A stretch of 64,000 nt of DNA from Eledone cirrhosa (lineage: Eukaryota), in contig OZ024745.1 in NCBI GenBank assembly GCA_964016885.1, forward strand, positions 76,632,001 through 76,696,000, read 5' to 3'. Made by a program: the position numbers and the translations under genes. The notes beneath the pieces are model-generated. The model did not search any database, had not been told where the DNA came from, and worked only from the letters and a program-made list of their open reading frames with translations. Of this stretch, positions 17,263-49,559 are shown in pieces. Position 1 is the stretch's first letter. Every line of letters begins with the position of its first letter.

Positions 17263-17662
17263 TGTATGTATGTATGTATGTATGTATGTATGTATGTATG
17301 TATGCATTATGTATGGATGCAAATATATGAATTACATTTATAGCTTCTGCAGAAAATATTTGCGGAATTCTATATAAATATCGGAATTCTATATAAATAT
17401 CGGAAAAAATGAAACGAAATTTCATTTCCCACTCTTAGTATGGCCGTTACTTAAATATAAGTATGTATACGTACATACATATATGTATACAGACGTACAG
17501 TAGTATGTGTATATATATACATACATGCACACATATATATATGTACGTATGGATTCACCAAACATTTATTATAATGCTCGGTGTGTTTGTAAACAAACAT
17601 CCCGTATTAAGCCGTAGTGTCTAGCAACCACCGTTGCTCGTTTGTTCAACACTGACAGAGGA

Positions 17663-17705
17663 ACGCTGTACTAGTTTCAAGCTTGTTAGCTATCGTCAGC
17701 AACGT
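17663..17705 (-). ncRNA. Type I hammerhead ribozyme motif (424-bp unit)
   Basis: rc: ACGTTG-CTGACGA-TAGCTAACAAGCTT-GAAA-CTAG-TA-CAGCGT. Confidence 0.82.
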
Positions 17706-18282
17706 ATACCTTCCTGCCAGATAGTTGAACGTCCGAAAGTATATACTTTCCTTATGCATATTAACGGCTGAGTAGCCCAATTTGCATATCGAGTGAGTTA
17801 ATCGGCACCGAAAACGATAAACGGAAAAAATGAAACGAAATTTCATTTCCCACTCTTGTTACTTAAATATAGGTATGTATACGTACATACATATATGTAT
17901 ACAGACGTACAGTAGTATGTATATATACATACATGCACACATATATATATGTACGTAACATGGGCTTAATACGGGGTGTTTGTTTACAAACACACCGAGC
18001 ATTATAATAAATGTTTGGTGAATCCATACGTACATATATATATGTGTGTATGAATATATATATACATACTACTGTACGTCTGTATACATATATGTATGTA
18101 CGTATACATACTTATATTTAAGTAACAGCTGTACTAAGTTGGGAAATGAAATTTCGTTTCATTTTTTCCGTTTATCGTTTTCGGTGCACCCGGCCGATTA
18201 ACCCACTCGATATGCAAATTGGGCTACTCAGCCGTTAATATACATAAGGTTATATACGTTCAACAATCTGGCAGGAAGGTAT

Positions 18283-18325
18283 ACGTTGCTGACGATAGCT
18301 AACAAGCTTGAAACTAGTACAGCGT
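18283..18325 (+). ncRNA. Type I hammerhead ribozyme motif (424-bp unit)
   Basis: ACGTTG-CTGACGA-TAGCTAACAAGCTT-GAAA-CTAG-TA-CAGCGT. Confidence 0.82.
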
Positions 18326-19004
18326 TCCTTTGTCAGTGTTGAACAAACGAGCAACGGTGGTTGCTAGACACTACGGCTTAATACGGGATGTTTGTTTACA
18401 AACACACCGAGCATTATAATAAATGTTTGGTGAATCCATACGTACATATATATATGTGTGCATGTATGTATATATATATACATACTACTGTACGTCTGTA
18501 TACATATATGTATGTACGTAAACATACTTATATATATAAATATCCTACTACGAAGATTGAAATAATTGGGGTTTTCTATTTCTATACAAGCTACCAATAG
18601 CAACCAAATGTACTATTAGCTGAGGAGGCACAGGTTTCCAAAGTTATGATTATGTATTACCCTTTGAGCTGTGATAAAGCAAACTTATAATCAAGACCTT
18701 CCAGCCATGATCTCTACATCTATTTTCAGACAATATATAATAAAACGTGCTCTTACTTATTTTTATGGCAAAGTATTATTTGATAAAAAAATTGACGGCT
18801 ATTTTCTGTCTGGTCACACAAACACGTAAAGGCTACTCCATTTACAATATAATACAACAGTTGTAAATAGCATTAATCGTCTTTTAAAGACCAAGACATT
18901 GAAAGGAAATTGCACGATTATCGACAATTTTCAGTCATATCGAAGTGACAGAAATATTAGAACTATTATCTAATATTAGAAATATTATCTAAATGCTTAG
19001 CAGT

Positions 19005-19698: not shown

Positions 19699-21331
19699 GA
19701 AATAAAGGTCTCAAACCAGCATTCTAAACAGCTTGCCAAGTCATACTGACAGGAAATGGTATAGAGTATCTGTTCTATCTCTAATGTCAAAGAGTTAAAA
19801 TTAGGTGGATAAAGAGTAGTCTCCCTTTAAAAGGGATTTTTTTATTTTTTTTTTTATATACATGCCTGTTTAAGTGTGTGGGAGAATGCATGAAGGTGTA
19901 AGTATGTGAGTGTGTGTGTGTGAGTGTGAAAAGATAAGTCTATTCGTAAATGTGGGGGATAGGTGTTATCTAGTGTTAGAACTGGTTTTGTGTGTGTATG
20001 TGTGAGAGAGAAGAAGTAGAGGTGTAAGCGTGTGTGTATGTGTGTGCGTGCGTGCGTGTGTGTGTGGGGTATGTGTAAATATGGGACTAGAAGCTCTATC
20101 AGGTTATAAATTGGGTGTTGAGTTCTAGTCTATTATTGATTGGTGGTTGTGTTTTATCTATAATTAGTGCTTCCTTAATTCTAAGATTGCCGAGGTTTCT
20201 TTCCTTAGTTTCTATCCTAACTGTTATGGTTTTGTCGGTGTTTTTGCATTTAACTAGGTGTTTCTTAAATGAGGAAGCGTTAGTATTGAGGTGTTCTTTT
20301 ATTCTTATGTGGAGTGGTCTGGTGGTGCTACCTACGTAGAAGTTGTTGCATTTGTCACACTCTAGTCTGTATACGACGTAAGCCAGATGGTCTGTGTCGT
20401 TGATGGGGCAGTTGGCTAGTCTGCAGCAGTTGTCATGTCTGGTGGAGTGTCTTTTGGTTAGCTGTCCGCGTAGAGAAGGACCTGAGTGGGCCAGTTGGAT
20501 ATCTAGTCCCTCTCGTCTGATAGCTCTGCGGATGGCTGTTGTTGTTTCTTCACTGAAGTGTGGGAGCTTCAGGAAGCAAGTGTTAGTGCCTCGGATGTAG
20601 TGTCCTCTGTTCTTTCTGGCACGGTTGTGGTGGATGTCGTGTATCCGTTCAGTTTGAGTACTTCCAGGAAATGTGTGGTGTGTGTGTCTCGGTCTCTAGC
20701 GTCGGTGCATTTGTTCCGGATACGTGCCAATTCGTTCCTTATGTATCCGAACTTGGCACCGAGTGGGAAGGCCGATCTGAAATGTACAAACAAGTCTCTG
20801 CTGGCGGCTTTTTTATAGAAGCAGGTGTGGATGTTGCCTTCCTCTGTTACCCTGAGTTGGAAGTCCAGTAGGGATAGGGAACCGCGGTCATCGGGGTGTT
20901 CCATGCTGAACTTTATACTGTCGTCCATGCTGGAGAATGTTGTGTATATTTTCTCTGCCTCCTCACGGGATGATGTAAGGATGAGTATGTCATCTACATA
21001 TCGGGTGAAGAAGGCATGGGAATGGCAGGTGTTGAGGGCTCGGCATTCTAGCTGGTTCATGTAGGTGATGGCCAGCAGGCCCGATAGGCTGGATCCCATG
21101 GGTAATCCTGTTGTCTGTCTGCATGTGTGGTGGTGGAAGGTGAAGTACGTGTTGTCTACTGTGAAGGACAAAAGCTGGTGTATGTCCGTCGGGTGGAGGC
21201 CGTAGCAGTGGATGTCCTCTGCGACCACGCAGTCCGTCAATAAATCGACAGCTGGATGAGCGGGGACTGTAGTGTAGAGGGAGACAACGTCGAGGCTTAG
21301 GCGTATTTATTTAGTTTGAGACCTTTATTTC

Positions 21332-26089: not shown

Positions 26090-26127
26090 CCTTCAGATGA
26101 GAGCCCAACAATGTTTGAAAATCGATT

Positions 26128-26132
<5 letters not shown>
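26090..26132 (+). ncRNA. Degenerate hammerhead (core CAGAUGA)
   Basis: CCTT-CAGATGA-GAGC..GTTT-GAAA-ATCGAT-TA-AAGG. Confidence 0.55.
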
Positions 26133-26575
<443 letters not shown>

Positions 26576-26636
26576 ATATGTATAGCCTTAGCCGGATGGC
26601 TGAAACAGGTAAAAGAGTTTATATATATATATATAT

Positions 26637-27160
26637 TTCACCGTATTTTTCGACTAAAGAAATTTTAGTCTGATAATGAGGTTTAGAACTCTCAGATACA
26701 TGGGTAAAGATGAGTATTGACGTACATGGGAGTCGAACCCAGATCTTTGGTTATCCAGACCACTGTGCTGCCATTTACACCAACACATCACCCATCTCCT
26801 TCCATTCAAATTAGAAGCTACATTCTTAGCGAGTGAATACGGTGAAAGCTATTCTATTTTCTAATTTCAAACCTGCTCACTGTTTCAAAACATACTTACT
26901 TGTCATTTATACTCGCTAAGAATGTAGCTTCTAATTTGAATGGAAGGAGATGGGTGATGTGTTGGTGTAAATGGTAGCACAGTGGTCTGGATAACCAAAG
27001 ATGTGGGTTCGACTCCCATGTACGTTAATACTCATCATTTTCCATGTATCTGAGAGTTCTAAACCCCATTATCAGACTAAAATGTCTTTTGTCGAAAAAT
27101 ACGGTGAAAACTATTCTATTTTCTAATTTCAAACCTGCTCACTGTTTCAAAACATACTTA
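26637..27160. mobile_element. Inverted-repeat element with internal tRNA-like cloverleaf
   Basis: Arms ~26637-26837 / ~26905-27108; a 60-bp tail is duplicated at 26839-26899 and 27100-27160; (TA)n on both sides. Confidence 0.85.
26956..27027 (+). tRNA. tRNA-like sequence (probably repeat-derived; second copy 26718-26789, minus)
   Basis: Acceptor GATGTGT/GTACGTT, D arm GTGT/GCAC, anticodon arm TGGT-CTGGATA-ACCA, T arm GTGGG-TTCGACT-CCCAT; A and B boxes present. Confidence 0.6.
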
Positions 27161-27195
27161 CATATATATATATGTATATATATATATATATGTGT

Positions 27196-27231
<36 letters not shown>

Positions 27232-27420
27232 ATAGGGAGTAAAAGACGATTATTAGGAGAAAAATATATTTTTTCCTTTTATTTATTTTTTTTCTGGGTT
27301 AGAAAATGTTTAAAACAAAATATTTTACTTTGTGTGAAGTGTTAAGGCATTAGTTAATTTATTTGTTAATTAACAATTGCATTTATTTATTTATTTATTT
27401 ATATATTTAATAATTGTCTA

Positions 27421-27452
27421 TTACCGGTTTCAGCATATTATGCATTATCAAA
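27421..27452 (-). ncRNA. Hammerhead core variant U3-A8, helix I degenerate
   Basis: rc: TTGATAA-TGCATAATATGCT-GAAA-CCGG-TA. Confidence 0.5.
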
Positions 27453-28454
27453 GGGGGGAATTTGTATTGGTGTAAAATGTTGATGTTGAACATACTGTTA
27501 TAGCACTAATTATGTTGGGTTCAAAACTTTTTGAAGACTCCTTCTATATAGGACAATATTTAAAAATTACGATAACATGGTTAGAATGGAGCGCAAACAC
27601 ACTTCCATACACATGTATTAGTCACAACAATAGAGGAGTTTAATTTGTGCTCGGCTGTGTGAAAGCCTAGGGAAATAGATATTGACATGTAGGTCATGAA
27701 TTTGAATTGCACTTATGGGTTTTATATATCTTTAAGCAAGAGTAAAAATTAGATTTGCCGTTCCATACTTTGTCTTTGTAGAAAATAATTTAAACATTTC
27801 GCGTGTTAAAACAGAGTGGTATTTAAGTCAGAAAGTAAGACTTAGTGATATCTAAAGGATTAGAAATAGATATTGACATGTAGGCATAACTAATCCTCTA
27901 ATTGACATCTACTAATGGATAATGTTAAACATCGTAACCATTTACAACTATTTTAAATGCCAATGTCTTTTTTTATTTTTATTTTATCGAATTCATGATG
28001 TTAGAGAGAAGTAGGATGAAGACAAGAGGAAAACCGAAGAGTATGACGAGGTAGAAGAAGGAAGAGGAGAGGGTAATGAAGAGAATATAAAGAAGAATAA
28101 CTCTTTGTTTAATAGTTAGTTTTATTTACTCTTTTAAGATAAAATAACGCATACAAACCTACTCTCTTTTCAATACAAATTTAGTAACTTTAAGCAAGGA
28201 TTATAAATCCAGAAATGTGATTTCCATAAAAAATAGAAATAGATCTTAGACAAATCCAAATAGTGTTCTCAGTGTTCATAATATCCTTTCGGTAGTTAGT
28301 TGCTAGCACAAAAATAAATACAAGATGAAATGTTTGCTTTTCCGCATGTATGACAACAATATTTTTTAGCTAGAGCCGTCATTAAATGTCAACGTTCATT
28401 TCCCAAGATTAAAAAGAAAGGAAATAGATGCCAGTCATTAGACCATTAGATAAA

Positions 28455-39542: not shown

Positions 39543-39587
39543 ATTAGCCAACAATGTTTCGTCCTATTAAGGACTCATCAGGGCAAT
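39543..39587 (-). ncRNA. Type I hammerhead ribozyme (left arm of IR 39497-39601 / 39707-39811)
   Basis: Exact reverse complement of 39721-39765. Confidence 0.88.
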
Positions 39588-39720
39588 CAAAACCACAAGA
39601 AGTACTATCGGCCAATACAAGCCGAAAACTCCGAAGAATATCGAGTGTACATACACTAAAGTATTGGAAGATTATGGGTAAAAATATATAATAAATAATA
39701 AATAATTTCTTGTGGTTTTG

Positions 39721-39765
39721 ATTGCCCTGATGAGTCCTTAATAGGACGAAACATTGTTGGCTAAT
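39721..39765 (+). ncRNA. Type I hammerhead ribozyme
   Basis: ATTGCC-CTGATGA-GTCC-TTAATA-GGAC-GAAA-CATTG-TT-GGCTAAT: canonical core and helix II. Confidence 0.88.
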
Positions 39766-47924: not shown

Positions 47925-49473
47925 AAGTATGTACACGTACATACATATACGTATACAGACGTACAGTAGTATGTATATATATATATATATATACATACAT
48001 GCACACATATATATATGACAAAGGAACGCTGTACTAGTTTCAAGCTTATTAGCTATCGTCAGCAACGTATACCCTCCTGCCAGATTGTTGAACGTGTATA
48101 CTTACGCATATTAACGGCTGAGTAGCCCAATTTTCATATCGAGTGGGTTAATCGGCCGGTTGCACCGAAAACGATAAACGGAAAAAATGAAACAAAATTT
48201 CATTTCCCACTCTTAGTATGGCTGTTGCTTAAATATAAGTATGTACACGTACATACATATATGTATACAGACGTACAGTAGTATGTATATATATATATAC
48301 ATACATGCACACATATATATATATATGTACGTATGGATTCACCGAACATTTATTATAATGCTCGGTGTGTCAGTGTTGAACAAACGAGCAACGATGGTTG
48401 CTGGACACTACGGCTTAATACGGGATGTTTGTTTACAAACACACCAAGCATTATAATAAATGTTCGGTGAATCCATACGTACATATATATATATGTGTGC
48501 ATGTATGTATATATATACACATACTACTGTACGTCTGTATACATATATGTATGTACATGTACATACTTGTATTTAAGTAACAGCCGTACTAAGAGTGGCA
48601 AATGAAATTTTGTTTCATTTTTTCCGTTTATCGTTTTCCGTGCACCCGGCCGATTAACCCACACGATATGCAAATTGGGCTACTCAGCCGTCAATATGCG
48701 TAAGGTAAGTATATACGTTCAACAATCTGGCAGTAGGGTATACGTTGCTGACGATAGATAATAAGCTTGAAACTAGAACAGCGTTCCTTTGTCAGTGTTG
48801 AACAAACGAACAACGATGGTCGCTGGACACTACGGCTTAATACGGGATGTTTGTTTACAAACACACCGAGCATTATAATAAATGTTCGGTGAATCCATAC
48901 GTACATATATATATATGTGTGCATGTATGTATATATATATATACATACTACTGTACGTCTGTATACATATATGTATGTACGAGTACATACATGTATTTAA
49001 GCAACAGCCGTACTAAAAGTGGGAAATGAAATTTTGTTTCATCTTTTCCGTTTATCGTTTTCGGTACACCCGGCCGATTAACCCACTCGATATGCAAATT
49101 GGGCTACTCAGCCGTTAATATGCATAAGGTAAGTATATACGTTCAACAATCTGGCAGGAGGGTATACGTTGCTGACGATAGCTAATAAGCTTGAAACTAG
49201 TACAGCGTTCCTTTGTCAGTGTTGAACAAACGAGCAACGATGGTTGCTGGACACTACGGCTTAATACGGGATGTTTGTTTACAAACACACCGAGCATTAT
49301 AATAAATGTTCGGTGAATCCATACGTACATATATATATATGTGTGTGCATGTATGTATATATATACACATACTACTGTACGTCTGTATACATATATGTAT
49401 GTACATGTACATACTTGTATTTAAGTAACAGCCGTACTAAGAGTGGCAAATGAAATTTTGTTTCATTTTTTCC

Positions 49474-49478
<5 letters not shown>
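47925..49478. repeat. Tandem array of ~424-bp HHR units (plus, 48369-49478, ~2.6 units) preceded by an inverted block (47925-48368)
   Basis: Unit starts GTCAGTGTTGAAC at 48369, 48791 and 49215; HHRs at 48026-48068 (-), 48742-48784 (+, site mutated to GAA) and 49166-49208 (+). Confidence 0.92.

Positions 49479-49559
<81 letters not shown>

Follow-up and report, generated by a model that had tools for sequence, protein, structure and literature searches.

A tRNA-bearing tandem repeat family of Eledone cirrhosa: a probable ribozyme-free Penelope-like passenger and candidate user of host tRNA splicing

The element at positions 26637-27160 of the window (the whole 64,000-nucleotide stretch of Eledone cirrhosa DNA analysed here) belongs to a non-coding tandem repeat family without an ORF, whose monomers (260-nt consensus, units of 260-271 nt arranged head-to-tail) carry an internal tRNA mimic. 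The family is very probably a ribozyme-free passenger of Penelope-like elements (PLEs), and copying by a PLE reverse transcriptase/endonuclease is likely. We propose, with confidence that is about evenly balanced, that TSEN and RtcB process the tRNA mimic into monomer circles, replacing the hammerhead ribozyme. The fuller model is offered tentatively. It would make the family a class of ribozyme-free retroelement that hijacks host tRNA splicing, with a tandem pair acting as a pre-tRNA in which the element is the intron, and with the break-off points of truncated copies recording tRNA processing.

The window copy consists of an inverted arm (26637-26834) fused to 1.25 direct units (26836-27161), with (TA)n on both sides. 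Its direct terminal repeat of 64 nt (26836-26899 and 27098-27161) gives a period of 262 nt, and the inverted arm, which spans monomer positions 76-274, forms a 204-nt inverted repeat of 95% identity. ARAGORN and Rfam both found a cloverleaf in each arm, at 26956-27027 on the plus strand (44.7 bits) and at 26718-26789 on the minus strand (37.3 bits), and both exceed the Rfam gathering score. The plus strand is the probable sense strand because the inverted 5' ends are variable and the 3' ends are joined to TA. The features of the copy are as follows.

26620-26636, no strand: left-flank (TA)n target run, from the sequence
26637-26834, minus: 5'-truncated inverted arm, monomer positions 76-274, from repeat comparison
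26718-26789, minus: tRNA-like cloverleaf of the inverted arm; self-complementary tRNA positions 32-35 (CTGG) at 26758-26755
26836-27097, plus (probable sense strand): one full monomer, 262 nt here and 260 nt in the consensus
26836-26899, plus: terminal direct repeat copy 1, part of the partial tandem
26939-26955, plus: leader strand of a 17-19-bp stalk that extends the acceptor stem, predicted pairing
26956-27027, plus: tRNA-like cloverleaf of the direct unit (ARAGORN, Rfam)
26987-26990, plus: self-complementary tRNA positions 32-35, CTGG; predicted central helix of a bulge-helix-bulge
26991-26993, plus: tRNA positions 36-38, predicted 3-nt bulge with a predicted TSEN cut at 26992/26993, from the swapped-dimer geometry and the cut positions discussed in PMC3978253 and PMC4090602
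27008-27014, plus: T loop, with A58 at 27012; directly 3' of this loop comes the zone in which the family is mainly 5'-truncated
27030-27045, plus: trailer strand of the stalk with a T run (T4 here, T5 in the consensus)
27046-27102, plus: two small hairpins, the motif of the initial annotation; the fold is kept in the family, the hammerhead-like words are not
27098-27161, plus: second copy of the terminal direct repeat, forming the 3' tail up to the TA run
27162-27227, no strand: right-flank (TA)n target run

The initial annotation, made from the letters of the window, had described this layout of inverted arm, partial tandem tail and (TA)n flanks and had placed a full cloverleaf inside the unit, and both descriptions held. 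Its comparison with hammerhead families was fair, as the window also holds several hammerhead-type repeat families and a PLE fragment with RT and GIY-YIG (20099-21306, minus strand). Among these repeats are an inverted Hammerhead_1 pair of another family at 39543-39765 (29.1 bits, below the cut-off, among the Rfam matches listed) and a 424-nt tandem family with a hammerhead-like core (48368-49479 and 17371-18536). A neighbouring inverted element (26127-26576) is centred on a long TA run. To the right of our element, 27228-27493 (minus strand) belongs to a GIY-YIG PLE family, of which it is the 3' terminus (79-90% to 13 of 30 GIY-YIG loci). It stops in the same TA run and is a separate insertion at the same microsatellite.

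Exact motif searches of the animal's own 3.0-Gb genome gave at least 3,909 matches for the trailer and 1,546 across the anticodon arm, with none for the reversed controls; a genome DNA search returned 3,042 first-look candidates, 40 of which were scored. The 3' ends of the family lie mostly in the AT-rich spacer and are joined to (TA)n in most loci, while the 5' ends are variable and frequently abut an inverted arm. Penelope-type marks described in PMC8557442 are present, namely the partial tandem with terminal direct repeat and tail, the inverted 5'-truncated neighbour copy and the microsatellite bias. We distinguished subfamilies 1a-1e and an older family, around 75% identical, with the same layout. 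Sampled loci contained 114 inverted arm pairs, 104 of them with both arms from the same subfamily, and two same-strand tRNAs one unit apart were seen in 7 of 60 sampled loci. At one locus (L127, G000:C1:131.459-131.466 Mb) some 26 units, 82-90% identical to the copy in the window, make up a satellite-like array whose 5' end carries an inverted arm. At another (L181:590-950) both arms carry the downstream 1c marker and the loops read CTGG and CGCG, which may reflect recombination between subfamilies.

No sequence match that would identify an autonomous partner was found in 30 of the 10,597 candidate GIY-YIG loci or in the PLE of the window. The GIY-YIG elements of this genome do also end at TA runs, with such a run at most 750 nt downstream in 17 of 30 loci. 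Rare variants common to one insertion were few, 33 in 14,110 nt, 10-fold over the control, a value that fits circular and linear templates alike. Two contig runs from a single sample, their kind not recorded, repeated variants of the family such as T>C at base 33, which has no bearing on expression.

The downstream hairpins had been read as a closed multi-hairpin with hammerhead-like CUGA and GAAA words, and speculatively as a divergent ribozyme. The fold itself stands: it is predicted in the minus copy at -10 kcal/mol, and both hairpins are predicted in all four subfamily consensuses folded. The words fare differently as a family feature, since they are private mutations of the window copy. 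Among 276 copies the GTAT-CTGA closing occurs in 3, CTGAGAG in 4 and GTC-GAAA in 9, compared with TAGT(C/T)AAA in 194; CCGA stands in place of CTGA in subfamilies 1b and 1d, and GATA in place of GAAA in 1b. An Rfam scan of a four-unit array at E<=10 returned the tRNA and one weak mascRNA match (14.7 bits, cut-off 42.5) and no ribozyme. Word counts and Rfam scan together rule out a divergent hammerhead on either strand. A divergent self-cleaving ribozyme in the downstream fold has in its favour that the two hairpins are predicted in every consensus, yet with core-like words in only 3-9 of 276 copies, their replacement in subfamily 1b and no ribozyme among the Rfam matches it is extremely improbable. 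The two hairpins appear, as predicted folds, to be kept in the family without a catalytic signature. Of the traits of non-LTR retrozymes, the family has the short tandem monomers, in arrays of up to about 26 units, and lacks the hammerhead in each unit.

The cloverleaf covaries among relatives. Covariation analysis gave 89.5% paired with two-sided changes at 12 of 24 pairs, against 29-51% for slid controls, in an alignment of 18 hand-picked copies from three families that includes the 15:48, 32:35 and 33:34 pairs and in which kinship inflates the value. The tertiary landmarks of a tRNA are present, as judged by the 15:48 covariation and the Rfam scores, and the A- and B-box-like D and T loops are intact. 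The D arm is nearly identical to that of host tRNA-Gln and the remainder of the mimic is unlike it; a comparison with phage tRNAs gave no match for the mimic. Decoding is unlikely because base 33 is variable (T, G and C in 110, 40 and 32 of 182 copies) and a T occupies position 37 in 171 of the 182. ARAGORN labels the mimic tRNA-Ser(GGA), and a working tRNA of this kind is ruled out by the variable base 33 and T37, where a functional gene would have U33, a purine at 37 and a stable anticodon.

Leader and trailer are predicted to form a helix of 17-19 bp that prolongs the acceptor stem, and such a helix would hinder RNase P and RNase Z. The stalk and the loop together argue against maturation into a working tRNA. 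A T5 run follows 10 nt 3' of the tRNA in all four consensuses. T runs terminate Pol III transcripts, and the copies were primed 80-150 nt beyond this one, which argues against a plain Pol III transcript. The initial annotation had suggested that the tRNA could act as a Pol III promoter or as an RNase P/Z signal replacing self-cleavage; the T5 run and the stalk make both roles a poor fit. Its broader idea of a PLE-style element that lacks a hammerhead and has a tRNA inside agrees with our data, and the tRNA is probably a processing signal in place of self-cleavage.

What the initial annotation overlooked is that the anticodon loop is self-complementary. Across 182 copies, positions 32-35 read CTGG in 97, CGCG in 29, CCGG in 27, TGCG in 5 and TTGG in 4, and 167 of the 182 are self-complementary. 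CTGG, CGCG and CCGG together account for 153 copies; each of these main words is tied to its own subfamily markers, and a self-complementary 32-35 is found in every master lineage identified (CUGG, CCGG and CGCG). CCAG, the non-pairing mirror product of CpG decay, occurs only twice in family 1 against 97 CTGG, so that CTGG alone of the two has expanded. In the older family the 32 loops include 10 CCGG (the master), 8 CCAG and 3 CTGG, a roughly symmetric outcome of neutral CpG decay, and the anticodon stem has changed in compensation. The 34 copies of subfamily 1c, a small sample, contain the C>T decay words TGCG (5) and CGTG (2) and no G>A words. The idea of a self-pairing loop was framed before any CCGG copy had been examined, and the families may share a common CCGG ancestor. 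The closest host tRNA found, tRNA-Gln, is not self-complementary at 32-35. Host tRNA-Thr(AGT), with CUAG, is, and a chance palindrome is therefore possible; the palindrome is backed by a single two-sided change, that to CGCG.

A 1.7-kb element carries, in all 20 of the loci checked, a third cloverleaf that differs in its body, has a stalk of its own and reads CCGG in 25 of 33 loops, some loci being counted twice. The matches of this cloverleaf to phage tRNAs, 77-86% among the matches listed, are uninformative. The host element (L033, L035-L043 and L077-L096, e.g. L037), which we take to be possibly Helitron-like, has around 100 copies, 95% identical, which combine a terminal hairpin with an internal inverted repeat of 175 bp, and its tRNA mimic is perhaps a captured monomer of a lost family. 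A genome pattern search for other T stems gave 58 matches, mostly tRNA-Tyr genes and the known families, and established no independent family. Intron-containing tRNA-Tyr genes and tRNA-Gln genes form large tandem clusters at G000:C1:49.29-49.38 Mb and C1:168.21-168.28 Mb; some Gln-type copies have a CTA (amber) anticodon and other changes and are probably pseudogenes. A metagenome scan, whose pattern fixed CCGG and is thus no test of the palindrome, gave 59 loci, mostly long-arm tRNAs of prokaryote type and none in tandem. Seven of these (L366, L370, L377, L378, L382, L386 and L402) are a dispersed repeat of 150-210 nt in AT-rich DNA with short inverted ends and a stalked tRNA mimic, not in tandem, the pattern-fixed loop being CCGG-ATA (CCGG-AAA in one).

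The palindrome suggests the following model. If a locus with at least two same-strand tRNAs were transcribed by read-through, the 5' half of the tRNA in unit n would pair with the 3' half in unit n+1, so that a whole monomer would become an intron at 37/38. This intron would be closed by a 4-bp helix (32-35 with 35'-32') flanked by two 3-nt bulges; TSEN would cut both bulges, leaving a 5'-OH and a cyclic phosphate, the ends used by hammerhead retrozymes, and RtcB would seal the monomer to a circle. A PLE would then start target-primed reverse transcription at TA nicks, with priming in the AT-rich spacer, and the synthesis would roll round the circle and generate partial tandems and inverted arms. 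The window copy, with a single sense tRNA, has no swapped fold in cis and is probably a dead product.

In prediction, the swapped dimer is an exact canonical bulge-helix-bulge at 37/38 with C32 paired to the third-last intron base, and the intron-containing tRNA-Tyr of the host has the same C32:G(-3) geometry. This is the motif and position treated as canonical in PMC3978253, PMC4090602 and PMC10485636. Relative to two cloverleaves, the swap is favoured by 3.0-3.7 kcal/mol for CGCG and CCGG and disfavoured by 1.2 kcal/mol for CUGG and by around 2 kcal/mol for non-pairing controls; central-pair probabilities in the free dimer are 0.011 for CUGG and 0.877 for CGCG. Against the swap, local hairpins would form first. 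The CUGG helix consists of C-G, U-G, G-U and G-C pairs. In the fly reporter experiments described in 10.1101/497545, animal tRNA splicing required the proximal C-G pair, the second and third helix pairs of the native tRNA-Tyr reporter were weak G-U pairs, and circle yield fell when the helix was too strong. The commonest word therefore fits the splicing rules, with C-G in the proximal place, G-U native at 2 and 3 and an over-strong helix being harmful. The ends that TSEN leaves (10.1101/497545) are of the same kind as those of retrozyme monomers. Permuted substrates have been formed in vitro by tandem pre-tRNA repeats, as presented in PMC3978253, and retrozyme monomers are circularised by RtcB in vitro according to PMC7229834. 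A circle is not required for such a life cycle, since hammerhead-free PLEs and tandem non-autonomous PLEs without any tRNA are described in PMC8557442.

We also examined where 5'-truncated arms break off. Among arms anchored 3' of the tRNA (n=101, a few loci looking duplicated), 71 start at positions 53-70, only 8 of them at 53-60, with the peak at 63-64, where a short palindrome gives microhomology. The methylated base m1A58 blocks reverse transcription, and the starts at 53-70 fit a block near A58 followed by trimming. There was no misincorporation signature for m1A58 or m3C32, as A58 differs in 7 and C32 in 10 of 182 copies, like their neighbours, and no subfamily with a changed A58 appeared among these copies. 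Of the arms that pass the T loop (n=143), 16 start at 33-36, a hazard of 0.030 against 0.003 per nt (10-fold, p=5e-9); about half of these junctions show microhomology, and a single locus contributes two of them. A further 37 start between -10 and +9 of the tRNA, 7-fold over background, and 62 extend to over 110 nt upstream of the T loop. No arm examined starts exactly at +1 and there is no sharp peak at 38. The 33-36 peak is compatible with pairing of the loop or modification of C32, and not with a linear RNA starting at 38; because a circle has no 5' end, it is neither a proof of TSEN nor a disproof. Since 71 of 101 arms stop at 53-70 and 37 of 143 close to the start of the tRNA, the templates are also shaped by modification of the kind found in tRNAs or by Pol III starts.

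The starts near the tRNA head bear on the condition that the initial annotation had named as refuting it, that other copies begin at the tRNA 5' end like an ordinary SINE. This was seen in part, for the 37 arms, which do not share one start base, and not for the 62 that extend well upstream. The arms that start near +1 leave some room for a Pol III reading, in which the family is a PLE-mobilised SINE whose tRNA is an internal Pol III promoter, with read-through of T runs, PLE template jumps and a loop that is an inherited accident. Intact box-like D and T loops and the existence of ribozyme-less tandem non-autonomous PLEs (PMC8557442) agree with it, but the T5 in every consensus, the arms reaching far upstream of the supposed start, the covarying anticodon stem and the kept palindrome, which it leaves unexplained, make it unlikely. 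By the usual marks of a SINE, too, the elements do not start at the tRNA head and do contain an internal Pol III terminator. A further reading, that RNase P and RNase Z cut multimers at the tRNA ends, as for mascRNA, to give linear monomers or a protected tRNA, with the mimic mainly a stabiliser, draws on the same hot spot near +1, on the T-arm stops, which suggest an RNA handled as tRNA, and on the weak mascRNA match. It is quite improbable given the absence of starts exactly at +1, the many upstream starts and the paired leader and trailer, and it leaves the palindrome without a role.

The 33-36 stops would also fit a palindromic loop that acts as a kissing or dimerisation signal, feeding two-armed insertions and template jumps without any TSEN cut. 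The loop-word evidence from the 182 copies and the older family is shared by this explanation, and insertions with two head-to-head arms are frequent, both arms belonging to a single subfamily in 104 of 114 pairs. Four base pairs are weak for a kissing complex, above all for CUGG, however; the helix lies precisely over 32-35 and leaves three bases free, as TSEN requires, and a full tRNA body would not be needed. We regard this reading as decidedly unlikely.

If the TSEN/RtcB model is true, animal TSEN would have in this family a natural substrate that is not a tRNA, and a retroelement would obtain its replication intermediate from the essential tRNA-splicing pathway and not from its own ribozyme. 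This would link retrozymes, tricRNAs and permuted tRNA genes, exemplify in nature the tandem-repeat route suggested for permuted tRNAs, offer a four-base switch for testing circle and tandem formation by PLE passengers, and suggest a ribozyme-free design for circular RNA expression. Among the papers searched, which included few subscription journals and few older SINE papers, there was no account of a tRNA-bearing PLE passenger or of TSEN processing of a repeat.

tRNA-derived SINEs have a tRNA-related region with A and B boxes and move by non-autonomous retroposition, features that the family shares. In contrast to them, its tRNA is internal to a circularly permuted tandem unit and followed by T5, and its ends are of PLE type, not LINE type. 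The animal non-LTR retrozymes, as described in PMC7229834 and bioRxiv 10.64898/2026.07.22.740005, are likewise small non-coding tandem monomers, linked to PLEs and with RtcB-type circularisation proposed; our family has a tRNA mimic where they have a hammerhead, and the word tRNA is absent from the main text of the retrozyme preprint (bioRxiv 10.64898/2026.07.22.740005). With Penelope-like elements such as MRC1, in the description of PMC8557442, it shares 5' truncation, partial tandems, an adjacent inverted 5'-truncated copy, a one-sided tail and microsatellite targets, whereas it lacks an ORF, and neither the 30 GIY-YIG loci tested nor the PLE of the window matched it in sequence. The predicted fold resembles intron-containing pre-tRNAs and the tricRNAs derived from them in the 37/38 intron, the proximal C-G pair, the tRNA body as a ruler and the use of TSEN and RtcB, as these are set out in 10.1101/497545, PMC10485636 and PMC4090602. 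It differs in that the predicted intron is a whole repeat unit, formed only when two units pair, and in that the ligated circle would itself hold a full cloverleaf. Circularly permuted tRNA genes, as treated in PMC3978253, resemble the prediction in the pairing of one copy's 3' half with the next copy's 5' half and in the circular intermediate; they yield working tRNAs, whereas the product of our family would be a mobile template.
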